In this document: piece after piece, positions 12 through 43,231 of the stretch
Numbering within the stretch: the first letter of the stretch is position 1
Layout of the letters: every line of letters begins with the position of its first letter
Sequence record: ON568341.1
Length of the DNA stretch: 64,000 nucleotides
Origin: Escherichia phage UE-S1
Strand: one strand, 5' to 3'
Made by a program: the position numbers and the translations under genes
The notes under the pieces: generated by a model
What the model was told of the DNA's origin: nothing
The model's input: the letters and a program-made list of their open reading frames with translations, nothing else
The model's database searches: none

Positions 12-278
12 GTGATAGGCGTAGAGTTCGAGATTGATTATGAGCCTAATGGTGTGGAAAACTGGCAGATTGACAAACATTTACCAAGTGAAGATGAAAT
101 TTATGTTTATGCAAGAAAACAGACAACCTTCAGTTCAAGAATTGCTCTTAATAATTTAGATTCATTTATTATTTTCTATACACGTGTAGGTGTAGATAAA
201 ATGGTAACTAAACTCAATGAATTATCATTACAACAAAAACAGATTAATGCATACAAAGACATTACAGATTTATACTAA
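12..278 (+). CDS. hypothetical protein; GTG start in track, frame stays open to the window edge so may be 5'-truncated
   Basis: ORF track; no stop in frame upstream of position 12 within the window. Confidence 0.35.
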   Translation: MIGVEFEIDYEPNGVENWQIDKHLPSEDEIYVYARKQTTFSSRIALNNLDSFIIFYTRVGVDKMVTKLNELSLQQKQINAYKDITDLY

Positions 279-23304: not shown

Positions 23305-23312
23305 AATAAATA
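23305..23312 (+). promoter_or_regulatory. candidate late-promoter-like motif AATAAATA (T4 late consensus TATAAATA)
   Basis: 54 nt upstream of the tail sheath ATG; AT-rich background makes chance matches likely. Confidence 0.25.
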
Positions 23313-33807: not shown

Positions 33808-34203
33808 ATGCAATATAATTATCGTGAACTAGTTGAAGCGTTGGACGAAATCACCGGACGAGATGAAGAAGGAAGTTTTTCCGTTGAAGTTGATTCCGAT
33901 GTTGTAGCAATTGATGTTCTTAAAGATATTACCAAATGTCTCGTTGATATTGTTGATAAGATTAAATCTGGTGAAGATCAAAAAGAAATCGTTGATAAAC
34001 TACAAAAAGCATGTGACATTTTGTCTGACATTCGATATAATGATGAAAGTACTGAAGTCGATGATGATGAAGTGATGGAAGCTATTGCTGGATGTTTTGG
34101 AACTGAAGGTATGGGTCCAACGATTGACAAAGATGGCGTACAGCACTATAATGAACCAGATGCACCATCTTATGCTGCACGCCAAGGTTATGTTGGAGAC
34201 TAA
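33808..34203 (+). CDS. acidic hypothetical protein
   Basis: ORF track; RBS GGAGA. Confidence 0.5.
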   Translation: MQYNYRELVEALDEITGRDEEGSFSVEVDSDVVAIDVLKDITKCLVDIVDKIKSGEDQKEIVDKLQKACDILSDIRYNDESTEVDDDEVMEAIAGCFGTEGMGPTIDKDGVQHYNEPDAPSYAARQGYVGD

Positions 34204-34208
34204 AATAT

Positions 34209-34589
34209 ATGTTTCCTGTACCATCACATAACAGTACTGAATATCAAAATGATGTACTTTCCAAAGTTAGGGAAGTACATGAATCAGATTCAGAAATAAC
34301 AGACCGTATGCTTCTGATGTCAATTTTTGAAAATTTCAGAACTGGCGGTGGTTTACGTCTTAGCAAGTTTGGGTATGGAATTTGTAAAGAAAATAATCTT
34401 TATGAATTTACAAAAATCCCCTTGCAAAGAGAATTTAAAAGTTCTATAATGTTTACATCACTTGACAGAATATGTACTTCACCTTATTATGTTGAAGGTC
34501 AGTACATATATCTGACAGATGCAATGATAATAACTGAATTAACATTGTGTTGTGATGATTTTAAACAATTATTTTCTATTCATATGTAA
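34209..34589 (+). CDS. hypothetical protein
   Basis: ORF track; RBS GGAGA. Confidence 0.45.
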   Translation: MFPVPSHNSTEYQNDVLSKVREVHESDSEITDRMLLMSIFENFRTGGGLRLSKFGYGICKENNLYEFTKIPLQREFKSSIMFTSLDRICTSPYYVEGQYIYLTDAMIITELTLCCDDFKQLFSIHM

Positions 34590-34601
34590 GAAAAATAAAT
34601 G

Positions 34602-34629
34602 TTGACAAGATAGAATGATGTGATATAAT
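34602..34629 (+). promoter_or_regulatory. sigma70-like promoter P1 (TTGACA, 16 nt, TGaTATAAT)
   Basis: Read directly; nearly identical element repeats 93 bp downstream. Confidence 0.5.
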
Positions 34630-34694
34630 AAGCATCAGACATAAAGTTTTCAAGCGGCACAAGATGTGAGTTTGAAAAAAATAAAAAAAAGTGA

Positions 34695-34722
34695 TTGACA
34701 AGTTGAAACGATGTGATATAAT
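34695..34722 (+). promoter_or_regulatory. sigma70-like promoter P2 (TTGACA, 16 nt, TGaTATAAT)
   Basis: Near-duplicate of P1, including the ATGTGATATAAT block. Confidence 0.5.
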
Positions 34723-34822
34723 GTTCACATCAAGGCAGCAAAGAGATTTACCTTTTTAAACACACGGATGATTCATGAAGTAATAAAGGAACTGATAAGT
34801 TAAATTATTTTAACACAGTTCC

Positions 34823-34851
34823 TTTACTTTTGCCCACGGATTGGCTATAAT
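34823..34851 (+). promoter_or_regulatory. possible third promoter (TTTACT, 17 nt, TATAAT)
   Basis: Read directly; 42 nt upstream of the MoxR-like ATG. Confidence 0.3.
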
Positions 34852-34892
34852 AGAAACTTAAACGATTTTATCCAACAAAAGGAAATATATAC

Positions 34893-36218
34893 ATGACTAC
34901 TCAAAACGATATCCTGAATGTTAAACTGACTCCAAAGAAAGCTAAAGAAGCAATGGCACTAGCTGACATGATTCAAGATAGCCTGATGATTTGGGGTAGC
35001 CCAGGTATCGGTAAGTCTGCAATTGCTCGTCAATACGCTGATGAAAATTACCCTCTGCGTAAAGATAACGAAGCTAAAATCGAGTTCATGAAACAACAAA
35101 TTGAAGCTGACCCTGAAAATGCTGATCAGCTACGCCGTGAACTGGCTGCATTTGAAGCTAAACTAATCGACCAAGATACTAACTTCATCGATTTCCGTTT
35201 GTCTCAAATTGAACCAAGTGACCTCCGTGGTATCCCTGTACCAGAGAAGCTTTTCCGTAAAACTGACGGTTCTCTTCTCAAAGAATCTGAGCTTGCTGAA
35301 GCAAAAGATTATGTTGCTGAAACTGCTGTAGTTTGGGCTGCACCTAAAGTGCTGAAATTGCCAGAAGATTGGAAAGGGGTTATTCTGTTTGACGAAATTA
35401 ACTCTGCAATGCCAATTGTTCAGGCAGCGTCTTATCAGCTAATCCTCGACCGTTGTGTTGGTGAGATGAAGCTACCTAAAACTGCACTGATTCTTGCAGC
35501 AGGTAACCGTGAAACTGATGGCGGTGTAACGTTCTCACTGGCTACACCACTACGTGACCGTATGACACACATTGAGATGATTCCTTATCATCAAGATTGG
35601 ATTAACGATTATGCAATTGGTAAACGTTTGAACCCAGCAACTGTTGCGTTCATCAACAACACAGGTTCTAAGTACTTTAACACTCTTAGCCCACAAGATC
35701 CTTCTCACAGTGGTGGTACTTCTCCACGTTCATGGGAAGCTGTAGCACGCTACGAAGATCTCAAGAAAACTAAGACAATTGATAAAGAAGTGTTCCGTGC
35801 AATGATTGCTGGGCGTGTAGGTGAAGGTGTAGCAACTGAATACATTGAGTACGTTGATAACGTTGCTAAACTACCAGATACTATGTCTATTCTGTCTGGT
35901 GAAATCAAAGATATCGATGCAACTCTTGATATTTCTGCGAATTATTTTATTACTTTGAACTTGGTTTATAAAATTATCGACCTGTTCAATGAGAAGCAAG
36001 AACAACGTCTACCAGTGGAAGAATGGGGTAAACTGTGCAACAACTTCATTACCTTCCTTGACCATAACTTCTCTGCAACTCAAGCAGAACTGGCAGTTCT
36101 GGCAATTCGCACCATTACGCTTCATAAGGTTGCGATTTCCATTAAAGATGTACCAGCGTTTAAAGATTTTATCGCTAAGTACTCTGAACTAGTTCGTAAA
36201 GCACGCTCTCTTGGGTAA
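34893..36218 (+). CDS. MoxR-like AAA+ ATPase (AAA_5/CbbQ/CobS-like)
   Basis: Walker A WGSPGIGKSAIARQYA, Walker B VILFDEINSA, downstream AAGNRE; 441 aa single-AAA architecture. Confidence 0.7.
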   Translation: MTTQNDILNVKLTPKKAKEAMALADMIQDSLMIWGSPGIGKSAIARQYADENYPLRKDNEAKIEFMKQQIEADPENADQLRRELAAFEAKLIDQDTNFIDFRLSQIEPSDLRGIPVPEKLFRKTDGSLLKESELAEAKDYVAETAVVWAAPKVLKLPEDWKGVILFDEINSAMPIVQAASYQLILDRCVGEMKLPKTALILAAGNRETDGGVTFSLATPLRDRMTHIEMIPYHQDWINDYAIGKRLNPATVAFINNTGSKYFNTLSPQDPSHSGGTSPRSWEAVARYEDLKKTKTIDKEVFRAMIAGRVGEGVATEYIEYVDNVAKLPDTMSILSGEIKDIDATLDISANYFITLNLVYKIIDLFNEKQEQRLPVEEWGKLCNNFITFLDHNFSATQAELAVLAIRTITLHKVAISIKDVPAFKDFIAKYSELVRKARSLG

Positions 36219-36239
36219 TTAACAAAGAGTGGTTGACAA

Positions 36240-36268
36240 GAAGGATACGATATAGTATCCTTCTTTTA
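36240..36268 (+). terminator. hairpin plus T-run (weak terminator or attenuator between the two module genes)
   Basis: GAAGGATAC gatata GTATCCTTC followed by TTTTATC. Confidence 0.45.
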
Positions 36269-36292
36269 TCTTAACTAAACGAGGAAATATAC

Positions 36293-37717
36293 ATGTCGGA
36301 TAACAAATCTTCATCTAAGTTTAATGAAGTATCACCAGAACTCCAAAAGGAATGTCAAGATCGATTGGTTCTGGCTCGTACATCTTTGATGTTAACTGCT
36401 CCGTTCTTTGGTGTTTTGGCTTCGCGTTTACGTCCTGTTCCTAATAATACATGGTGTCGTACACTAGCAGTTGATGGGAAACATTTATTCTACAATGTAG
36501 AATTTGTTATGGGCATCCAAGATCAATCTAAAAAGAAAGAGTACGAAGATGCTATTCGTGAAAAACACCCAGAGGTTACTGATGAACAATTAAAAGAAAT
36601 GACAGAAGGTCTGACAGATGAAAACCTCATTGCAGTGATTTGTCATGAAATTTTGCATTGTGCTTACGACCACTTCCTTCGTCGTGGAATGCGTGATCCA
36701 CAACGATACAATCGTGCAGCAGATTATGCAATTAACCAAATTATTGTCCGTGAGAAAATTGGAAAAATCCAAAGCTCATGGTTATATGATAAAAAATATG
36801 AAGGAATGACCGCTGAAGAGATTTATATTCTTCTGGAAGATGAAGAACAAAAAGAAGAAGGTGAAGGGAACGGTCAACCACAAAGCGGTGGTGGTGAAGG
36901 TGAAGGTAAAAATCGCGGAACTTTTGGTGATATCAAAGATGGTAAGGGTAAACCAAAAGGTACAACAATTGACCAACATGACGTTCCACAAGAAGGCCAA
37001 GACGGTGGTTCAAGTGAACAGCAAAAACGCGATTATATGGATGATTTCAAAACAGCAATGATGAATGCTGCACGTGCTGGTGGCACACCAGCAGAAATCG
37101 CTCGTATGATTAATAACTTCAAAGAACCAAAGATTGATTGGCGTTCTAAACTTCAACGCACTCTTCGTAGCTGGTTGAAGTCTGATGCAACTTATCAAAA
37201 TCCAGCACGTCGTTCATGGGGTGCAGGTTTTGGTTCTAATGGTTCATTTTATGGTAATCCAATTTATCCAGGGATGAAACCAGATGATGATATTGATATT
37301 GCAATTGCACTCGATGCTTCTGGTTCTATTTCCGAAGACATGCTTCGTGATTTTATTAGTGAAGTTCTTGGTATCACTAAACAATTTAAACAGTTTAAAA
37401 TTCGTATCATGACATTTGATACTGAAGTTTATACTGTAAAAGATTACAAAACTGGTGAAGAACGTAAGATTCTGGAATATCCAGTAAAAGGTGGTGGTGG
37501 TACTGACTTTGAAGCAGTATGGGTTCATATGAAGAATGACAACTATAAGCCTAAACAGCTTGTAATGTTTACTGATGGTGAACCGTGGCAGTCATGGGGT
37601 GATCCTAACTACTGTAAAACACTGTTTGTGATTCACAGTAACCCAAATAAAGTTGCACCATTTGGTGAAACAGTACACTACGAGTATGAAGCAGACAAAA
37701 AACGTCAACGTAGTTAA
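36293..37717 (+). CDS. VWA-domain protein with N-terminal HExxH metallopeptidase-like motif (DUF2201-like partner of MoxR ATPases)
   Basis: HEILHCAYDH zinc-binding-like motif; Gly-rich acidic linker; C-terminal MIDAS-like DASGS followed by FTDGEPW. Confidence 0.65.
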   Translation: MSDNKSSSKFNEVSPELQKECQDRLVLARTSLMLTAPFFGVLASRLRPVPNNTWCRTLAVDGKHLFYNVEFVMGIQDQSKKKEYEDAIREKHPEVTDEQLKEMTEGLTDENLIAVICHEILHCAYDHFLRRGMRDPQRYNRAADYAINQIIVREKIGKIQSSWLYDKKYEGMTAEEIYILLEDEEQKEEGEGNGQPQSGGGEGEGKNRGTFGDIKDGKGKPKGTTIDQHDVPQEGQDGGSSEQQKRDYMDDFKTAMMNAARAGGTPAEIARMINNFKEPKIDWRSKLQRTLRSWLKSDATYQNPARRSWGAGFGSNGSFYGNPIYPGMKPDDDIDIAIALDASGSISEDMLRDFISEVLGITKQFKQFKIRIMTFDTEVYTVKDYKTGEERKILEYPVKGGGGTDFEAVWVHMKNDNYKPKQLVMFTDGEPWQSWGDPNYCKTLFVIHSNPNKVAPFGETVHYEYEADKKRQRS

Positions 37718-37729
37718 GTACTAAATAAT

Positions 37730-37759
37730 GAGAACGGAAATTTTCCGTTCTCTTCTTTT
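37730..37759 (+). terminator. intrinsic terminator
   Basis: GAGAACGGAAA / TTTTCCGTTCTC hairpin followed by TTCTTTT. Confidence 0.6.
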
Positions 37760-37765
37760 ATAAGT

Positions 37766-37793
37766 GAGACAACTCACAAAAATATGATATAAT
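37766..37793 (+). promoter_or_regulatory. possible promoter with extended -10 (TGaTATAAT) and weak -35 (GAGACA)
   Basis: Shares the ATGATATAAT block with P1, P2 and the ClpA-like promoter. Confidence 0.3.
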
Positions 37794-37828
37794 AGTTATT
37801 GTACCAATATACATGGAGAGTATTAAAA

Positions 37829-38074
37829 ATGGAACAAGAAAATAATCAAATTCAACTAACCCTTCTAGACCTAATCAATGCAGCAAAAATCATGGAAGCT
37901 GCTGTTGCCCGAAATACATTTAAAGTTGAAGAACTCGTGGATGTTTCCCCAGTTGTCGCCAAATTTGTTTCTTTTGCAAATGAAGCACTTGAAGATATTA
38001 AAGCTCAAGAAGACGCTGCTAAAGAAGAATCTGAATCACAAGATATTAAAGCTCAAGAAGATAAAGGAGAATAA
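37829..38074 (+). CDS. small acidic hypothetical protein
   Basis: ATG at 37829 after GGAGAG; track start 37799 lacks an RBS. Confidence 0.45.
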   Translation: MEQENNQIQLTLLDLINAAKIMEAAVARNTFKVEELVDVSPVVAKFVSFANEALEDIKAQEDAAKEESESQDIKAQEDKGE

Positions 38075-38076
38075 TT

Positions 38077-38733
38077 ATGGCAGCTATTCGTCATGTTGGT
38101 GTAATGCGTAATACAGGTTCACGTGTTTTTGTTGTTTGGCGTTCACTACCAGATGATCCTGACCACTGCCTTATTGTTTATCGTGATTCCTTACCAGAAG
38201 CATATGTTCATGCAGTAACTGATATTGTGATGGGTCATGGTCAATCAAACATTGATTTGTGGGAAGTAATGCATAAAATTGGTTACCTGGATGGTCGTAA
38301 AATGCTAGATGTACTACACAATATGCAACATTTACGTCGAGTTCGCACTTGTGATATTGATATGCATACTGGTGGTAATAATAAAATTTCTCTTGATGTT
38401 CTAAACAAAGCATTAGATGAAAATCAAGCGAAAGTACAAGAAGATGGTAAAGTAAAAGACTTTAACCCATTTAACCCACAAGAAGTAGACACAAAAGTTG
38501 AAGAAGCAACTATTGTTGAACAACTTATTTCTGACGCTAAAAAATATGAAAAACTTGCTCAAGAACACTATGAACGTGCATACAATTTAGAGCCAAGTTT
38601 GCGTCCACAAACACAAGTTGTTGAACAACCAAAAGATAGTAAAACAATTTATCTAGAAATTCCTGAAGGTATTTCACAGACTAAAGCTATTGAGAAAGTA
38701 AAACAACTATTCGCAGAACGCAAAGCAAAATAA
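38077..38733 (+). CDS. hypothetical protein
   Basis: ORF track; RBS AAGGAG. Confidence 0.5.
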   Translation: MAAIRHVGVMRNTGSRVFVVWRSLPDDPDHCLIVYRDSLPEAYVHAVTDIVMGHGQSNIDLWEVMHKIGYLDGRKMLDVLHNMQHLRRVRTCDIDMHTGGNNKISLDVLNKALDENQAKVQEDGKVKDFNPFNPQEVDTKVEEATIVEQLISDAKKYEKLAQEHYERAYNLEPSLRPQTQVVEQPKDSKTIYLEIPEGISQTKAIEKVKQLFAERKAK

Positions 38734-38736
38734 AAT

Positions 38737-39330
38737 ATGAAAAAGAATGAATTAGATGAAGCAATTAAAGGTTTATCTAATGTATGTTTTAGTGGCGGGG
38801 CAGCAGGTGCTGACCGCCTTTTTTCAATCTATGCAAAAAATAATGGATTTGAAGTTATTAATTTTTCATTCAAAGGTCATGTGCATAGTGTAGATGAAAG
38901 CACCATATTAGAAATACCATCCAATATTTTATCTGATATTTCTATATTAAATCAACTAAACATTGCATGTTATTCGTTGCAGCGAAAAGTACCAAAGCCT
39001 GGTTCATATGTTTACAACTTACTTGCAAGGAATAGTTATCAGATACTTAATACAGAAAGAATATATTGTATTGCAAATATTACATCGCCAACTAAGGTAA
39101 GTGGTGGTACTGCATGGGCAGTACAGATGTACATTGATTCAGTTGAAAATCCAGAAATTTATTGTTATGATATGAATTCACGTTCTGTGTTTTACTTCGA
39201 TACAGAACTGAAAGAGTTCAAACAATCATTCGTGGTTCCACCACCACATGGTAACTGGACTGGTATTGGTTCACGCAATGCAACAGAAAAACATATGGAA
39301 CATTTTATTACATTTTTCAAGGAAGAATAA
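38737..39330 (+). CDS. hypothetical protein with Rossmann-like GGAAGAD motif (possible SLOG/DprA-like fold)
   Basis: VCFSGGAAGADRLFSIYA near the N-terminus; assignment is tentative. Confidence 0.4.
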   Translation: MKKNELDEAIKGLSNVCFSGGAAGADRLFSIYAKNNGFEVINFSFKGHVHSVDESTILEIPSNILSDISILNQLNIACYSLQRKVPKPGSYVYNLLARNSYQILNTERIYCIANITSPTKVSGGTAWAVQMYIDSVENPEIYCYDMNSRSVFYFDTELKEFKQSFVVPPPHGNWTGIGSRNATEKHMEHFITFFKEE

Positions 39331-40883
39331 TGAAGCAACTACAAGAACTATATCAAAAAATTCTAGATGAAGGCGTAGAAAGCGTTGACCGTACTGGCGT
39401 TGGCACAATCAAACTTATCGGTCAACAAATGCGTTTCGACCTTAAAGATGGTTTCCCAGCAGTGACGACAAAACGTCTAGCTTGGAAATCAATGACTTCA
39501 GAATTACTATGGTTTATTGAAGGCTCCCATGATGAACGTCGCCTTTGTGAAATTTTACATGGAACTCGTGATACAGAAAAGAAAACTATTTGGACAGATA
39601 ATTGTTTAGATCGTGCAAAAAACGATCCCAATCGATTTAATGGGGAAACGGTCGGTAATATGTATGGCATGAATTGGCGTTATCAACCATCTGAACCACA
39701 TAGCTATCAATATATTGAGAGGAAAACATATATTGATGATTATGTTGAAAATCATATTTGTCCAGAAATTACTGATACATTTAATGGAGTTAAAATTCAC
39801 AAATCTGCCAAATGTGGGGATTATGAAGTTATTGGTAAACATCATAATAATATAGTAATTCGTTTCATTAACACCGGTTCATATAAAATTGTACCAAGAA
39901 CTGCGAAAAATATTAAAGATTTTTTCCAACCATCAATTGAAGGGATTGGATATTTGGGTGGTGTAATTCCTGATACATTAACTGCAAAAAAATTATATCA
40001 AATTTGGAAAGATATGATTATTAGAGTGTATAACCCTAGAAAAAATCATTTATCATATGAAAATATAACTGTATGCAAACGTTGGCATAATTTTATGAAT
40101 TTTTACAATGATGCTTTTTCATTATGGGGATTTCAAGAATTTGTTGACAGTGGGTATTCTCATCAACTTGATAAAGATTATTACGGTTCAAACATTTATT
40201 CACCTGATACTTGTATTTTTATATCAGCATCATTAAATAAAACATTAAATGGTGGTGGACATGGGTTTAAAATTTATCTTTATAAAGGTAATGTATTTTA
40301 TTCTAGAACCGATTTACAAGAATCACGTGGTTTAACAAGAAAGGCCAATTTACCAGATGATGTAACAATATTAGAAGATAATGAAACACACGTAGTAAGA
40401 CCAAAAATATACATTGATCAACTACAGCGTTGTATTGATTTAATAAAGAACGATCCAGATTCAAGACGAATTGTTATTACATCATGGAATTCTAGAGATA
40501 TTGAAAATGCAGCATTAGGTATGTGTCACCCATTAGTACAATGGTTTGTTATTAATGGTAAGTTGTCATGTTCATTTTATATGCGTAGTTCTGATAGCTT
40601 CTTAGGCTTACCATTCAACATAGCATCATATGCACTACTTACCCACATGATAGCACAAATATGTTCTCTAGAGGTTGGAGAATTGATTTATACAGGTGGT
40701 GATTGTCACATTTATAAAAACCACGTTGAACAAGTAAAAGAACAACTACAGCGAAAACCACGTGAATTACCTGAATTGTGGCTTGATCCTACCATTACTA
40801 ATATTGAAGATTTCACAATGGATTCTTTCAAATTAGTAAATTACAACCCAATGCCAACAATTAAAGCACCGATGGCTGTATAA
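39330..40883 (+). CDS. td: thymidylate synthase (ThyA type) with ~240 aa in-frame insertion
   Basis: N-terminal 118 aa and C-terminal 156 aa align along bacterial ThyA (DRTGVGT, ELLWF, DPDSRRI, GLPFNIASYALL, active-site CHP region); the insert sits at the variable loop after the W-R motif. Confidence 0.85.
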   Translation: MKQLQELYQKILDEGVESVDRTGVGTIKLIGQQMRFDLKDGFPAVTTKRLAWKSMTSELLWFIEGSHDERRLCEILHGTRDTEKKTIWTDNCLDRAKNDPNRFNGETVGNMYGMNWRYQPSEPHSYQYIERKTYIDDYVENHICPEITDTFNGVKIHKSAKCGDYEVIGKHHNNIVIRFINTGSYKIVPRTAKNIKDFFQPSIEGIGYLGGVIPDTLTAKKLYQIWKDMIIRVYNPRKNHLSYENITVCKRWHNFMNFYNDAFSLWGFQEFVDSGYSHQLDKDYYGSNIYSPDTCIFISASLNKTLNGGGHGFKIYLYKGNVFYSRTDLQESRGLTRKANLPDDVTILEDNETHVVRPKIYIDQLQRCIDLIKNDPDSRRIVITSWNSRDIENAALGMCHPLVQWFVINGKLSCSFYMRSSDSFLGLPFNIASYALLTHMIAQICSLEVGELIYTGGDCHIYKNHVEQVKEQLQRKPRELPELWLDPTITNIEDFTMDSFKLVNYNPMPTIKAPMAV

Positions 40884-40917: not shown

Positions 40918-43188
40918 TTATCTAATTGTTACCAACGTTCTTCCGTCGAAACGTACATCAGGAGTTGAAGGTATACTGAACACTACGTTAGTGCCGTTAA
41001 ACGTCACGCTATCGACCTCAACACGAGTATAGACACCTGGACTAACCTGTTCCTGTATCTCTGCTGTGACGATGTTTGAGGCTGTTACAGTAAGGGTGTA
41101 GTAGTTACCACTTAATACCCAAGATGAAATGGTAAATGCATCGGTTCTTACTGAACCTGAACCAATTGGAACCCATTGACCTTGAACTTTTTGCATTGAA
41201 GTACGCTCGGTATTGGAGTATGCAATCATACCATCAACACCAACAGAGTTATCAATAGTAGCTAGTACTGGTAATTGAATACCATATCTATTGAAACGTG
41301 TTCTAATAATTCCATTATCATAGATACTTACATCAGCATAATTCCCCATTGAAAGTTTCAAATCTGAATCAACTAATTGCATTGTACTTTGGTTAGTAGG
41401 GCTTTCTAAAGTAATTATTCCATTTGGTAATAAGCTTAAGTTTTTAAATTTATTCGAATTACCATTAAAATTTGTATTAGCGTTGAAAGTACTAGTTCCA
41501 TTAACTACTATTGTGTTTTCTGCGGCATCACCTAATATTGTATTTCGTTGAACAATCAAGTTACCATTAGCAGTAATATTAGTCGCTGTAGTATCACCAT
41601 TTAATTTTGTATTAGCGTTGAAAGTACTAGTAGCATTAACTACCAATGTGTTTGTTGCGTTGTCACCTAATATAGTATCACTTTGAACATTCAAATTACC
41701 ACTAGCAGTAATATTAGTCGCTGTGGTATCGCCATTTAATTTACTTGTACCATCAACTACGATATTACTATTAAATTTCGTATTAGATTTAAAAGTACTA
41801 GTAGCATTAACTACCAATGTGTTTGCTGCGGTGTCACCTAATATTGTATTGCTTTGAACATTCAAATTACCACTAGCAGTAATATTACTAGCTGAAGTAT
41901 CACCAATTAATCTACTTGTACCATCAACTACGATATTACCATGAAAATCGCTTTCACCGTTTTTAAATTCCACTTGTACCGAATACATAGAACTAAATGA
42001 AATTATATTACTACTTGCACTTATACCAACATTAGTATTAGTTGGGTTATCGAAGTGTAATATTGGAGTTAATGCTGGTGTTGTTGTTGTTTGATAGAGC
42101 GTTAATGATGAGTTGTTAATTCGCACACGTTCTGTTCCGGCAGTACTAAATCCAATAGCATCATCAGCAGGATGAAAAATACCAGTATTAGTATCAGACC
42201 ATTTTTCAGGATCATTACCAGGATTACTTGTTGGGTCGAATGGTTTATTATTAAATGCTATCGCTGGTGCGGAAGCACTCCCATATACAACACCAAAACG
42301 ACCAGACCCTATTGTACCATCATCATACATTGAATCGCCTGTTCTACGTAAACATTCAATTACAACATTATCTATGGAAGTTTGAACTGTACCAGCATTA
42401 GTTCTGAATTGACGATTATTTGCAATCATAATAGTGTTATCATATAACACAGAAGCTGCTGAAATACTTGTTCTTGATTGACGAAGGCGTATGTTTTTAT
42501 CTTCAGTAATAATAATCCAATCACCATCAGATAGTGCTGTTTGATTCATTGGCACACCGGAAGCAAACGGCTTAGTTAAATCATCATCAGTTGCTAAATT
42601 AACAAGTCCACTATGCCCAGTACTAGGGATGGAAGTTGAAATAATTCTTGCAAAAGCGTTTGTTACGAGCTTTGCACCAGATATATTTGGATTAGAATCA
42701 ACATAATATAAAATTTCAACCCAATTCCCCTGTCCAGTTGGGTTAGTTGGAGTAAATGTTACTGGGCTGGTTTTTGGTTTATTCGCTTCAAAATGTGCTT
42801 GGGCGGCATCCATAATACCACGCACAACATAATAATCACCACTAAGTGATGATGAGGGTGCAGGTAGTGGGCTTTGGGCTAACGGTGGGTCAATATCATC
42901 TGGAATCGGATTATATGTACCAACAAACTGTAAACCACTAGTTACTGAATCTGGTAATTGAGATGTAAGAAGTTTACCATTTGCATCTAAGTTAGCGAAA
43001 CGCCTGTATGCCATTGAACCATCTTCAAAATCCAGAACACCCTCGAACGATTTCCATGCTTTATTGTATCTAATCATCCCTGATCTTATTACATCAGCGG
43101 TTTCTTTTGATGGTGCTTTTGGTAATTCTAAAAAAGATTTACTATCAATAATTACACCACCATCACCTCTAATTCGATTTATACTCAT
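40918..43188 (-). CDS. tail fiber protein with tandem ~40 aa repeats
   Basis: 756 aa, Asn/Thr/Ser/Gly-rich; repeats NTLVVNATSTF-x-NTK-x-NGDTTATNITASGNLNVQ. Confidence 0.65.
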   Translation of the reverse strand: MSINRIRGDGGVIIDSKSFLELPKAPSKETADVIRSGMIRYNKAWKSFEGVLDFEDGSMAYRRFANLDANGKLLTSQLPDSVTSGLQFVGTYNPIPDDIDPPLAQSPLPAPSSSLSGDYYVVRGIMDAAQAHFEANKPKTSPVTFTPTNPTGQGNWVEILYYVDSNPNISGAKLVTNAFARIISTSIPSTGHSGLVNLATDDDLTKPFASGVPMNQTALSDGDWIIITEDKNIRLRQSRTSISAASVLYDNTIMIANNRQFRTNAGTVQTSIDNVVIECLRRTGDSMYDDGTIGSGRFGVVYGSASAPAIAFNNKPFDPTSNPGNDPEKWSDTNTGIFHPADDAIGFSTAGTERVRINNSSLTLYQTTTTPALTPILHFDNPTNTNVGISASSNIISFSSMYSVQVEFKNGESDFHGNIVVDGTSRLIGDTSASNITASGNLNVQSNTILGDTAANTLVVNATSTFKSNTKFNSNIVVDGTSKLNGDTTATNITASGNLNVQSDTILGDNATNTLVVNATSTFNANTKLNGDTTATNITANGNLIVQRNTILGDAAENTIVVNGTSTFNANTNFNGNSNKFKNLSLLPNGIITLESPTNQSTMQLVDSDLKLSMGNYADVSIYDNGIIRTRFNRYGIQLPVLATIDNSVGVDGMIAYSNTERTSMQKVQGQWVPIGSGSVRTDAFTISSWVLSGNYYTLTVTASNIVTAEIQEQVSPGVYTRVEVDSVTFNGTNVVFSIPSTPDVRFDGRTLVTIR
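41460..41940 (-). repeat. tandem ~120-bp coding repeats inside the tail fiber gene (approximate bounds)
   Basis: Near-identical DNA units visible around 41.46-41.94 kb matching the protein repeats. Confidence 0.5.
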
Positions 43189-43231
43189 TTAAATATTTCC
43201 TCAGAATAGATTATATATGATGTATTTATTT

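Follow-up and report, generated by a model that had tools for sequence, protein, structure and literature searches.

The 64,000-nucleotide stretch of Escherichia phage UE-S1 analyzed here (ON568341.1; hereafter the window) encodes, side by side on the plus strand, an AAA+ ATPase (34893-36218, 441 amino acids) and a partner protein (36293-37717, 474 amino acids) in which a putative zinc metallopeptidase (zincin) domain is joined to a C-terminal von Willebrand A (VWA) domain. Judged by homology, the pair is the Asteriusvirus copy of the gp24/gp25 module of phage N4, a module widespread in mobile genetic elements. The reading that we favor, with about as much confidence as doubt, is that the two proteins would form a remodeller-protease that acts on the host early or midway in infection and serves mainly in counter-defence. 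The pair itself is already known: its sequence and annotation are on record for many phages, and a MoxR-vWA-metallopeptidase pair was described in 'group 2.2' jumbo phages of gammaproteobacteria (Iyer et al., 2021, Viruses 13:63, PMC7824862). What an initial annotation of the window had presented as a peculiarity of a phage structural region is this same module, annotated also in phAPEC6. Our analysis adds a chain that links the jumbo-phage pair through N4 gp24/gp25 to an anti-defence gene of phage Bas54, the extension of the family to large plasmids, a cassette of hairpin and promoter that is conserved in the spacer of the pair, and a correction to an 'HNH endonuclease' label.

Results

An Asteriusvirus copy of the N4 gp24/gp25 module

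Both open reading frames proposed in the initial annotation were recovered from the window with the lengths and strand given above. The window is part of an Asteriusvirus genome, a jumbo coliphage like 121Q, PBECO4 and phAPEC6. Across the 3.1-kb region that holds the pair, 35 phage records match over at least 80% of the length, the best at about 94% nucleotide identity, and a protein 100% identical to the partner has already been deposited at NCBI. The counterparts of the pair in 121Q are genes 563 and 564, and the phAPEC6 record labels the orthologs 'MoxR ATPase' and 'N4 gp25-like protein'.

The window pair, N4 gp24/gp25 and the MoxR ATPase and 'putative metallopeptidase' of Bas54/Bas58 all fall in phrog_1297 and phrog_1314, with E-values from 1e-106 to 1e-136. 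Direct BLASTP comparison of the window proteins gave 2e-29 to gp24, 2e-29 to gp25 and 5e-32 to the Bas54 ATPase bas54_0063. In N4 the two genes are adjacent and are followed by a dCTP deaminase gene, and gp25 carries the same DUF2201_N and DUF2201 domains as the window partner. Across 25 N4-like phages, Chan et al. counted only 14 core genes, two of which are gp24 ('unknown') and gp25 ('vWFA domain'); the function of both was listed as unknown in 2014, and in N4 both were given as middle transcripts (Chan et al., 2014, PMC4193335).

The family extends well beyond these phages. By tblastn, 577 phage records contain the partner and 808 the ATPase, with homologs in Rak2-like, PA5oct-like, V5-like, PVP-SE1/CR3-like, KB57-like and N4-like lineages, and partner homologs occur in a further 84 plasmid records. 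On a Burkholderia plasmid the module is flanked by a PRTRC system and by type IV secretion genes, on a Thermus megaplasmid the adjacent pair sits between RecQ- and UvrD-type helicase genes, and on Synechocystis pSYSA the adjacent pair Sll7029 and Sll7028 is found amid toxin-antitoxin genes. The pair goes unmentioned in the RaK2 and CBB papers, a literature search that combined N4-like phages, von Willebrand and ATPase returned nothing, and the text of the PA5oct multi-omics paper holds no per-gene temporal or virion data on the homologs. The CRISPRi-ART paper contains no data on these genes, and a Serratia phage transposon-sequencing preprint concerns unrelated phages.

Conserved motifs and the class of the ATPase

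The Walker A and Walker B motifs of the ATPase (GSPGIGKS, residues 35-42; ILFDEINSA, residues 164-172), as well as the HExxH motif (HEILH, residues 118-122), the Gly/acidic linker and the metal-ion-dependent adhesion site (MIDAS; LDASGS, residues 340-345) of the partner, can all be read from the translations, as first reported. An alignment of 68 ATPase homologs has G35, G38, K41, S42, E168, N205, R223 and R279 invariant and D167, which forms the Walker B pair with E168, conserved in at least 90% of members. From their positions, the invariant N205, R223 and R279 would be the putative sensor-1, arginine finger and sensor-2. In a 66-member alignment of the partner, H118, E119, H122, D341, S343, S345, T404 and D428 are invariant. 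Given such invariance in the family alignments, the motifs of both proteins are not chance matches.

The initial annotation had assigned the ATPase to the MoxR/AAA_5 type, staking this on a significant profile match, and for the window protein itself no such match was found. Its scores lie below threshold for Pfam AAA_5 (E = 0.017, 15.6 bits against a cut-off of 22) and AAA_3 (E = 0.0093, 16.3 bits against a cut-off of 27), and MoxR-type profiles gave no match at 1e-3. These sub-threshold scores apparently reflect lineage-specific insertions: helices are inserted at about residues 53-91, and the beta-hairpin at 114-149 is long. The C-terminal domain of the protein is helical. Its homologs do match, 21 of the 68 to AAA_5 (best 5e-8), 15 to AAA_3 (1.1e-7) and 3 to bpMoxR, and the homolog from phage Paride exceeds the AAA_5 cut-off with 24.0 bits. 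The AlphaFold2 model of the window ATPase (predicted local distance difference test score, pLDDT, 86.6), which shows a second beta-hairpin at about 188-194, has as its top Foldseek matches in the PDB the NorQ hexamers and NorQ-NorD complexes (E about 3e-7, TM score about 0.6 on the target), with clamp loaders, McrB, RuvBL and sigma-54 activators trailing NorQ by less than one order of magnitude in E-value. PDB searches by sequence, with single sequences and with profiles, yielded only marginal matches (midasin P-loop, integrin I-domain). The type assignment therefore rests on the family and the fold and not on the protein's own AAA_5 score; as judged from homolog profiles, the MoxR class holds at family level.

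A zincin-VWA partner mislabeled as an endonuclease

The domain order first proposed for the partner, an HExxH domain followed by a linker and a C-terminal VWA domain with a MIDAS, was borne out by profiles and alignments. DUF2201_N (PF13203, 'putative metallopeptidase') scores 120.3 bits against a cut-off of 23.2 (1.5e-34), and C-terminal to it the VWA-like DUF2201 (PF09967) scores 75.1 bits against a cut-off of 26.4 (7e-21), which is the order of COG3864-type proteins. The AlphaFold2 model (mean pLDDT 77) has disordered stretches at 193-238 and 298-328, with pLDDT below 50 at 193-221, and the Gly/Glu-rich linker at about 185-240 is predicted to be disordered.

We also aligned eight partner sequences, from the window phage, N4, V5-like, PA5oct-like and N4-like Achromobacter phages and from Burkholderia, Synechocystis and Thermus plasmids. 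Invariant in the N-terminal domain are H118, E119, H122, H127, R130, P136, N140, A142, D144 and N148, which makes H127 and D144 candidates for the third zinc ligand, and in the VWA domain the whole MIDAS set (D341, S343, S345, T404 and D428) is invariant. As fold searches with the partner are dominated by its VWA domain, the N-terminal domain was compared by sequence profile. The matches in the PDB were selecase/MJ1213 (E = 1.2e-3), an M48 peptidase (E = 0.05), HtpX and BepA, in alignments that cover the strand and the HExxH helix, and by this comparison the domain looks like a genuine zincin of the M48/minigluzincin type. No report of peptidase activity or metal binding by the partner was found in the searchable literature, and a full-text search on 'DUF2201' returned unrelated papers only.

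Many GenBank records, together with the label of phrog_1314, would instead assign an HNH or homing endonuclease to the second gene and an unrelated generic ATPase to the first. Apart from the phrog_1314 label 'HNH endonuclease', copied into many records, we see nothing to recommend this, and we give it practically no credence. The partner has no HNH-family match in Pfam, its fold is that of a VWA protein, and DUF2201_N plus DUF2201/VWA explain the whole protein; moreover, 76 of 80 viral loci pair it tightly with the ATPase on one strand (see below), which speaks against independence. HNH endonuclease identity is ruled out by this domain and fold evidence, and the label is a spreading database error. 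GenBank and PHROG also attach to the DUF2201 protein the labels 'homing endonuclease', 'Zn-dependent hydrolase (T4-gp25-like)', 'anti-sigma factor', 'DNA repair ATPase' and 'coil containing protein'. Such labels contradict one another, and 'T4-gp25-like' seems to be a corrupted form of 'N4 gp25-like'.

Bas54 homologs and a host defence system

The sole phenotype data that we found come from a preprint on the transposon screen HIDEN-SEQ in the V5-like phage Bas54 (10.1101/2025.11.20.689424). Bas54 is phage MaxBurger (MZ501093.1), and its ATPase gene bas54_0063 (57234-58418) belongs to phrog_1297. On E. coli K-12, 60 of 64 TA sites were hit in bas54_0063 and 81 of 86 in the metallopeptidase gene bas54_0055, and both genes were called non-essential (10.1101/2025.11.20.689424). 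Between K-12 and the clinical isolate CFE311, mean values went from 148.7 to 0.0 for the ATPase (log2 fold change -7.23, adjusted p 0.00000) and from 219.7 to 47.2 for the metallopeptidase (log2 fold change -2.20, adjusted p 0.009), and the gene of the 99-amino-acid bas54_0140 gave a log2 fold change of -5.48 (10.1101/2025.11.20.689424). From a clean knockout, bas54_0063 is reported to be specifically needed against cloned DS-28, a two-gene system predicted by DefenseFinder (10.1101/2025.11.20.689424). Neither protein is needed for Bas54 to form infective particles, and both matter on a host that carries the defence. PADLOC-DB, a database of defence models and not of anti-defence, gave no hit to the window pair, and NCBIfam gave nothing useful.

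In supplementary file 9 of the same preprint (Data S6, S7), the sheet 'K-12 vs CFE303' repeats the console line (BW versus 311) and the numbers of the CFE311 sheet, and the resampling table for CFE303 thus seems to be absent from the file.

Promoters and a conserved cassette between the genes

The initial annotation had placed the pair behind stacked promoters and had noted a hairpin between the genes, and both features are present (Table 1). P1 and P2, which begin at 34602 and 34695, are 12/12 matches to a sigma-70 site in the form TTGACA-16-TGnTATAAT, and a weaker 10/12 site lies at 34823. With at most one mismatch this extended pattern occurs five times in the 64 kb, against 0.15 expected. 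P1 is conserved in 121Q and phAPEC6, where its -10 element reads TACAAT, and P2 is identical in both; the 300 nucleotides upstream of the ATPase gene are 98% identical to these two phages, against 94% for the whole region. A stable leader hairpin followed by UUUACUUUUG, also conserved in 121Q and phAPEC6, appears in both the minimum free energy and the centroid folds (z = -2.45 for the whole leader) and may be an attenuator, a transcript stabilizer or a barrier to late-gene read-through. The intergenic hairpin, with its 11-bp stem, folds at -18.6 kcal/mol (z = -3.8). No Rfam family was found in 34000-38200.

An ATAAATA late-promoter motif has been proposed for CBB and GAP32, which are Rak2-like phages, and the CBB paper gives three promoter classes (PMC5259590). 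In the window ATAAATA is strongly depleted, with 12 copies against 39 expected. Coding-strand copies stand 35-45 nucleotides upstream of structural genes, including those for tail sheath, tube and fibre (for example at 23306, 26377, 30156 and 30683 on the plus strand and at 43223 and 53953 on the minus strand), and the window scan found none upstream of the ATPase or partner gene. As read from these sequences, the promoters of the pair are of the host sigma-70 type rather than of the late type.

The arrangement recurs in related viruses. Scanning IMG/VR with the 66-sequence partner alignment identified at least 596 viral stretches that encode partner relatives, of which 80 loci were kept; these loci are mutually related, and the counts below are not counts of independent events. 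Of the 80, 76 have an ATPase homolog directly upstream of the partner and on its strand, usually 40-117 nucleotides away, and one of the four exceptional loci has just 530 nucleotides of upstream sequence. Nearly all distinct spacers (51 of 52) can form a hairpin of 6 bp or more that includes three or more G-C pairs, followed in 42 of these 51 by a T-run, and the median folding z-score of the 52 is -3.2. Promoter-like sites (TTGACx-16/17-TAnnnT) occur in 42 of the 52 spacers and lie 3' of the hairpin in 38 of these 42. Of 67 distinct regions upstream of the ATPase gene, 55 hold a sigma-70-like site (TTGACn-16..18-TAnnnT), for which the background rate is 0.081 per 250 nucleotides. Together, the spacer hairpins and promoter sites suggest that the two genes tend to be separate units driven by host RNA polymerase, with a terminator between them. 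The terminator-like hairpin probably keeps the ATPase in excess over its adaptor, which would fit a six-to-one complex as in NorQ-NorD.

Genomic setting

In 121Q a block of tail sheath, tail tube and virion-protein genes precedes the pair, and two small genes, a DprA-like gene and then thyA follow it. The initial annotation had the pair embedded in a structural region, between tail genes and thymidylate synthase. That order is right, and the pair does adjoin the structural block; it stands at the edge of the block and not within it, and three small genes intervene before thyA. Downstream of the VWA gene, 75 of the 80 viral loci encode a protein of about 200 amino acids (phrog_15894 in the window), and upstream of the pair 61 encode one of about 129 amino acids (window 34209-34589, phrog_15638). 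Going by synteny, phrog_13789, phrog_15894 and phrog_15638 may be part of the same functional unit. Judged by eye, many IMG/VR relatives also encode a flap-endonuclease- or RNase H-like protein of about 328 amino acids some 4-8 kb upstream of the VWA gene, and a subset encode QueE-like radical-SAM and GTP cyclohydrolase I-like proteins (7-deazaguanine pathway) upstream.

Table 1. Features of the ATPase/zincin-VWA locus in the window
Feature	Position	Strand	Details
P1 promoter	34602..34629	+	TTGACA-16-TGATATAAT; perfect -35, extended -10; A-rich UP-like tract upstream
P2 promoter	34695..34722	+	TTGACA-16-TGATATAAT; near-duplicate of P1
Leader hairpin then UUUACUUUUG	34784..34826	+	between P2 and P3
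P3 promoter-like site, weaker	34823..34851	+	TTTACT-17-TATAAT; 10/12 matches
MoxR-class AAA+ ATPase, N4 gp24 homolog, phrog_1297	34893..36218	+	441 aa
Intergenic element	36233..36272	+	11-bp hairpin 36238-36265, then TTTTAT; TTGACA-17-TATCCT site 36233-36261 overlaps hairpin
Zincin-VWA partner, N4 gp25 homolog, phrog_1314	36293..37717	+	474 aa
Strong intrinsic terminator closing the unit	37730..37752	+	10-bp stem, 5 G-C pairs, T-run; terminator-like on both strands
Conserved downstream neighbor, phrog_13789	37799..38074	+	tied to module by synteny alone
Conserved downstream neighbor, phrog_15894	38077..38733	+	tied to module by synteny alone

Two nearby genes differ from their counterparts in 121Q. 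The thyA gene (39330-40883) encodes 517 amino acids, against 309 in 121Q; residues 1-90 and 473-517 of the thymidylate synthase match 121Q with 100% identity, and the part between them with about 70%. The in-frame insert (about 39684-40385, some 208-234 amino acids) matches PHROG 'HNH endonuclease' families (phrog_2081, 3.6e-32, with partial profile coverage) and has no Pfam match. It looks like an insertion derived from a homing endonuclease, with co-conversion of the flanking thyA sequence, and may be either an intein-like element or a tolerated domain insertion. On the minus strand, the tail-fibre-like protein encoded at 40918-43188 (756 amino acids) contains at least three tandem units of about 50 amino acids ('...GDT(S/T)A(S/T)NITA(S/N)GNL(N/I)VQ...TILGD.A.NT(L/I)VVN(A/G)TSTF...') and is longer than the product of its 121Q counterpart, gene 569 (1965 bp).

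Discussion

The Bas54 phenotypes, together with promoters of sigma-70 rather than late type, lead us to favor a counter-defence remodeller over a virion-assembly chaperone. The initial annotation had left the role of the pair between virion assembly and host takeover; the Bas54 data favor the host-directed option, in its counter-defence form, and disfavor an essential role in assembly. By analogy with NorQ, the ATPase would form a hexameric ring, and the VWA domain of the partner, with its complete MIDAS, would dock on this ring and/or bind an acidic residue of the target. ATP-driven pulling or twisting by the ATPase would act on the partner and the protein that it holds, and the zincin domain would then cleave the held protein. 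The pair would in this way be a two-component ATP-dependent protease or remodeller, with the partner as its adaptor-effector. In NorQ-NorD, cryo-electron microscopy places the VWA domain in the ring with a finger into the pore and the linker remodelled (PMC13036017). Expressed as a self-contained unit from host sigma-70-type promoters, with the hairpin between the genes probably giving more ATPase than partner, the machine would act on host proteins early or midway in infection, notably by neutralizing a defence system. Ring formation, ATPase-VWA contact, binding, unfolding, peptidase activity and cleavage are all predicted, and we infer them from analogy with known systems.

A bolder version of this proposal is one that we consider possible and rather less probable. 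N4-, V5- and Rak2-like phages and conjugative megaplasmids would share a portable, ATP-driven machine that grabs, unfolds and cuts, and that destroys host immune or restriction factors soon after entry, with the terminator-then-promoter cassette setting a many-to-one ratio of ATPase to adaptor. If so, the N4 core genes gp24/gp25 would represent a new mechanistic class of anti-defence, in which proteolysis is coupled to a MoxR motor. A true counter-defence role would give a function to a very widespread gene pair of phage 'dark matter', would add an ATP-driven protease to the known means by which phages disarm bacterial immunity, and would bear on phage host range and on the choice of phages for therapy.

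Several observations weigh against counter-defence. The functional data come from a 24%-identity homolog in another phage subfamily and from one preprint, none of them from Asteriusvirus. In Bas54 the depletion of the partner was far weaker than that of the ATPase, and bas54_0140, an unrelated protein, was also required against DS-28, so the ATPase may act partly without the VWA-zincin protein; no bas54_0140 homolog was found in the window, which is uninformative since the window covers about 18% of the genome. Core-gene status in the N4-like phages suggests a role more basic than countering one system. We found no terminator between the upstream late genes and the pair, and late read-through is possible. 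Further points on this side favor a rival in which the pair is a virion-morphogenesis chaperone and processing protease, folding or assembling parts of the tail or head while the zincin trims structural proteins. Such a role in assembly was proposed for the group 2.2 jumbo phages by analogy with p618 and p892 of the Acidianus two-tailed virus (Iyer et al., 2021, PMC7824862). The window pair comes directly after the tail and virion gene block, a 'second structural module' stands beside the gp24/25 homologs in N4-like roseophages and LIT1 (PMC4193335), and gp265c, the ATPase ortholog of phAPEC6, was detected in purified virions (6 peptides, 19% coverage). The phAPEC6 virion list lacks the VWA-zincin partner and includes thymidylate synthase, an enzyme, which hints at carry-over of abundant proteins. 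On K-12, transposon insertions were tolerated at about 94% of TA sites in both Bas54 homologs, N4 gp24/25 are middle genes, the promoters of the window pair are of sigma-70 type with no ATAAATA motif, and the pair is also carried by plasmids, which make no virions. These points argue against an essential part in virion assembly, and we regard the assembly rival as unlikely.

Two other rivals seem to us more doubtful still. The initial annotation likened the pair to metal-insertion chaperones, and a machine of the NorQ/NorD, CbbQ/CbbO or CobS/CobT kind could serve a phage or host metalloenzyme, for example in nucleotide metabolism. NorQ and NorQ-NorD are the nearest solved structures to the ATPase, the MIDAS of the partner is complete, genes of nucleotide metabolism are neighbors (thyA in the window, dCTP deaminase in N4 and Axy10), and N4 gp24 weakly matches a PHROG labeled 'porphyrin biosynthesis' (6.8e-07). 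The chelatase analogy leaves unexplained the invariant HExxH zincin domain of the partner, which none of those chaperones has; neither Pfam nor NCBIfam gave a match to CobS/CobT, CbbQ_C or NorD-type families, no single client-enzyme gene is conserved beside the pair across the lineages examined, and the pair is non-essential in Bas54. We rejected auxiliary metabolic genes of the CobS/CobT type, with no family hits and a partner of the wrong type, and also RavA/ViaA, which gave no hits; a metal- or cofactor-insertion role is improbable. A remodeller of DNA metabolism that strips or cleaves DNA-bound or cross-linked proteins, as Wss1/Spartan do with Cdc48/p97, is just as hard to credit. It draws on the place of the N4 pair in the middle (replication) region, on the helicase and PRTRC/type IV secretion surroundings of the Thermus and Burkholderia copies, on the V5-like genes beside rIIA/rIIB and a helicase, and on the DprA-like gene near the window pair. 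All of this evidence is gene context; searches of Pfam and PHROG detected no DNA-binding domain in either protein, the zincin is M48/minigluzincin-like rather than SprT/Wss1-like, and the pair is non-essential on K-12.

Comparison with known systems

N4 gp24/gp25 share with the window pair their PHROGs, gene order, strand, short spacer and catalytic residues. Relative to gp24, the window ATPase carries some 40 additional residues, a helical hairpin, behind its Walker A helix, and both its beta-hairpin and its C-terminal domain are longer. The window partner differs from gp25 by an added helical insertion at about 74-105 and by the greater length of its Gly/acidic linkers. The N4 pair is transcribed by the phage's own RNA polymerase II as middle genes, whereas the window promoters are of the host sigma-70 type. 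The V5-like proteins bas54_0063 and bas54_0055 belong to the same PHROGs, and bas54_0063 aligns with the window ATPase over Walker A/B, the sensor motifs and an SPRSW motif; however, identity is only 24%, and the two genes are not adjacent but lie 8 genes apart on opposite strands.

The pair that Iyer et al. described in group 2.2 jumbo phages, with ASV44729.1 and ASV44728.2 as example proteins, has the same domain description and is 'almost certainly' of the same family, being matched by description, but the role in virion assembly and processing proposed there is not what the later genetic data suggest. The p618 (MoxR) and p892 (VWA) proteins of the Acidianus two-tailed virus, likened by description and in the analogy drawn by Iyer et al., are likewise a virus-encoded MoxR-VWA pair; they differ in belonging to an archaeal virus, in lacking a peptidase domain and in their role in extracellular tail development. 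NorQ/NorD, and with them CbbQ/CbbO, CobS/CobT, BchI/BchD and RavA/ViaA, are MoxR or chelatase ATPases with VWA partners. The ATPase model is nearest to NorQ, the VWA fold of the partner, with its MIDAS, matches NorD, BchD and BatB, and a logic of one hexamer plus one adaptor is plausible for the window pair. Sequence identity to these systems is 12-15%, and their partners have no zincin domain. They adjoin a client enzyme and insert metals, whereas the window pair has no client gene beside it and carries an invariant protease motif.

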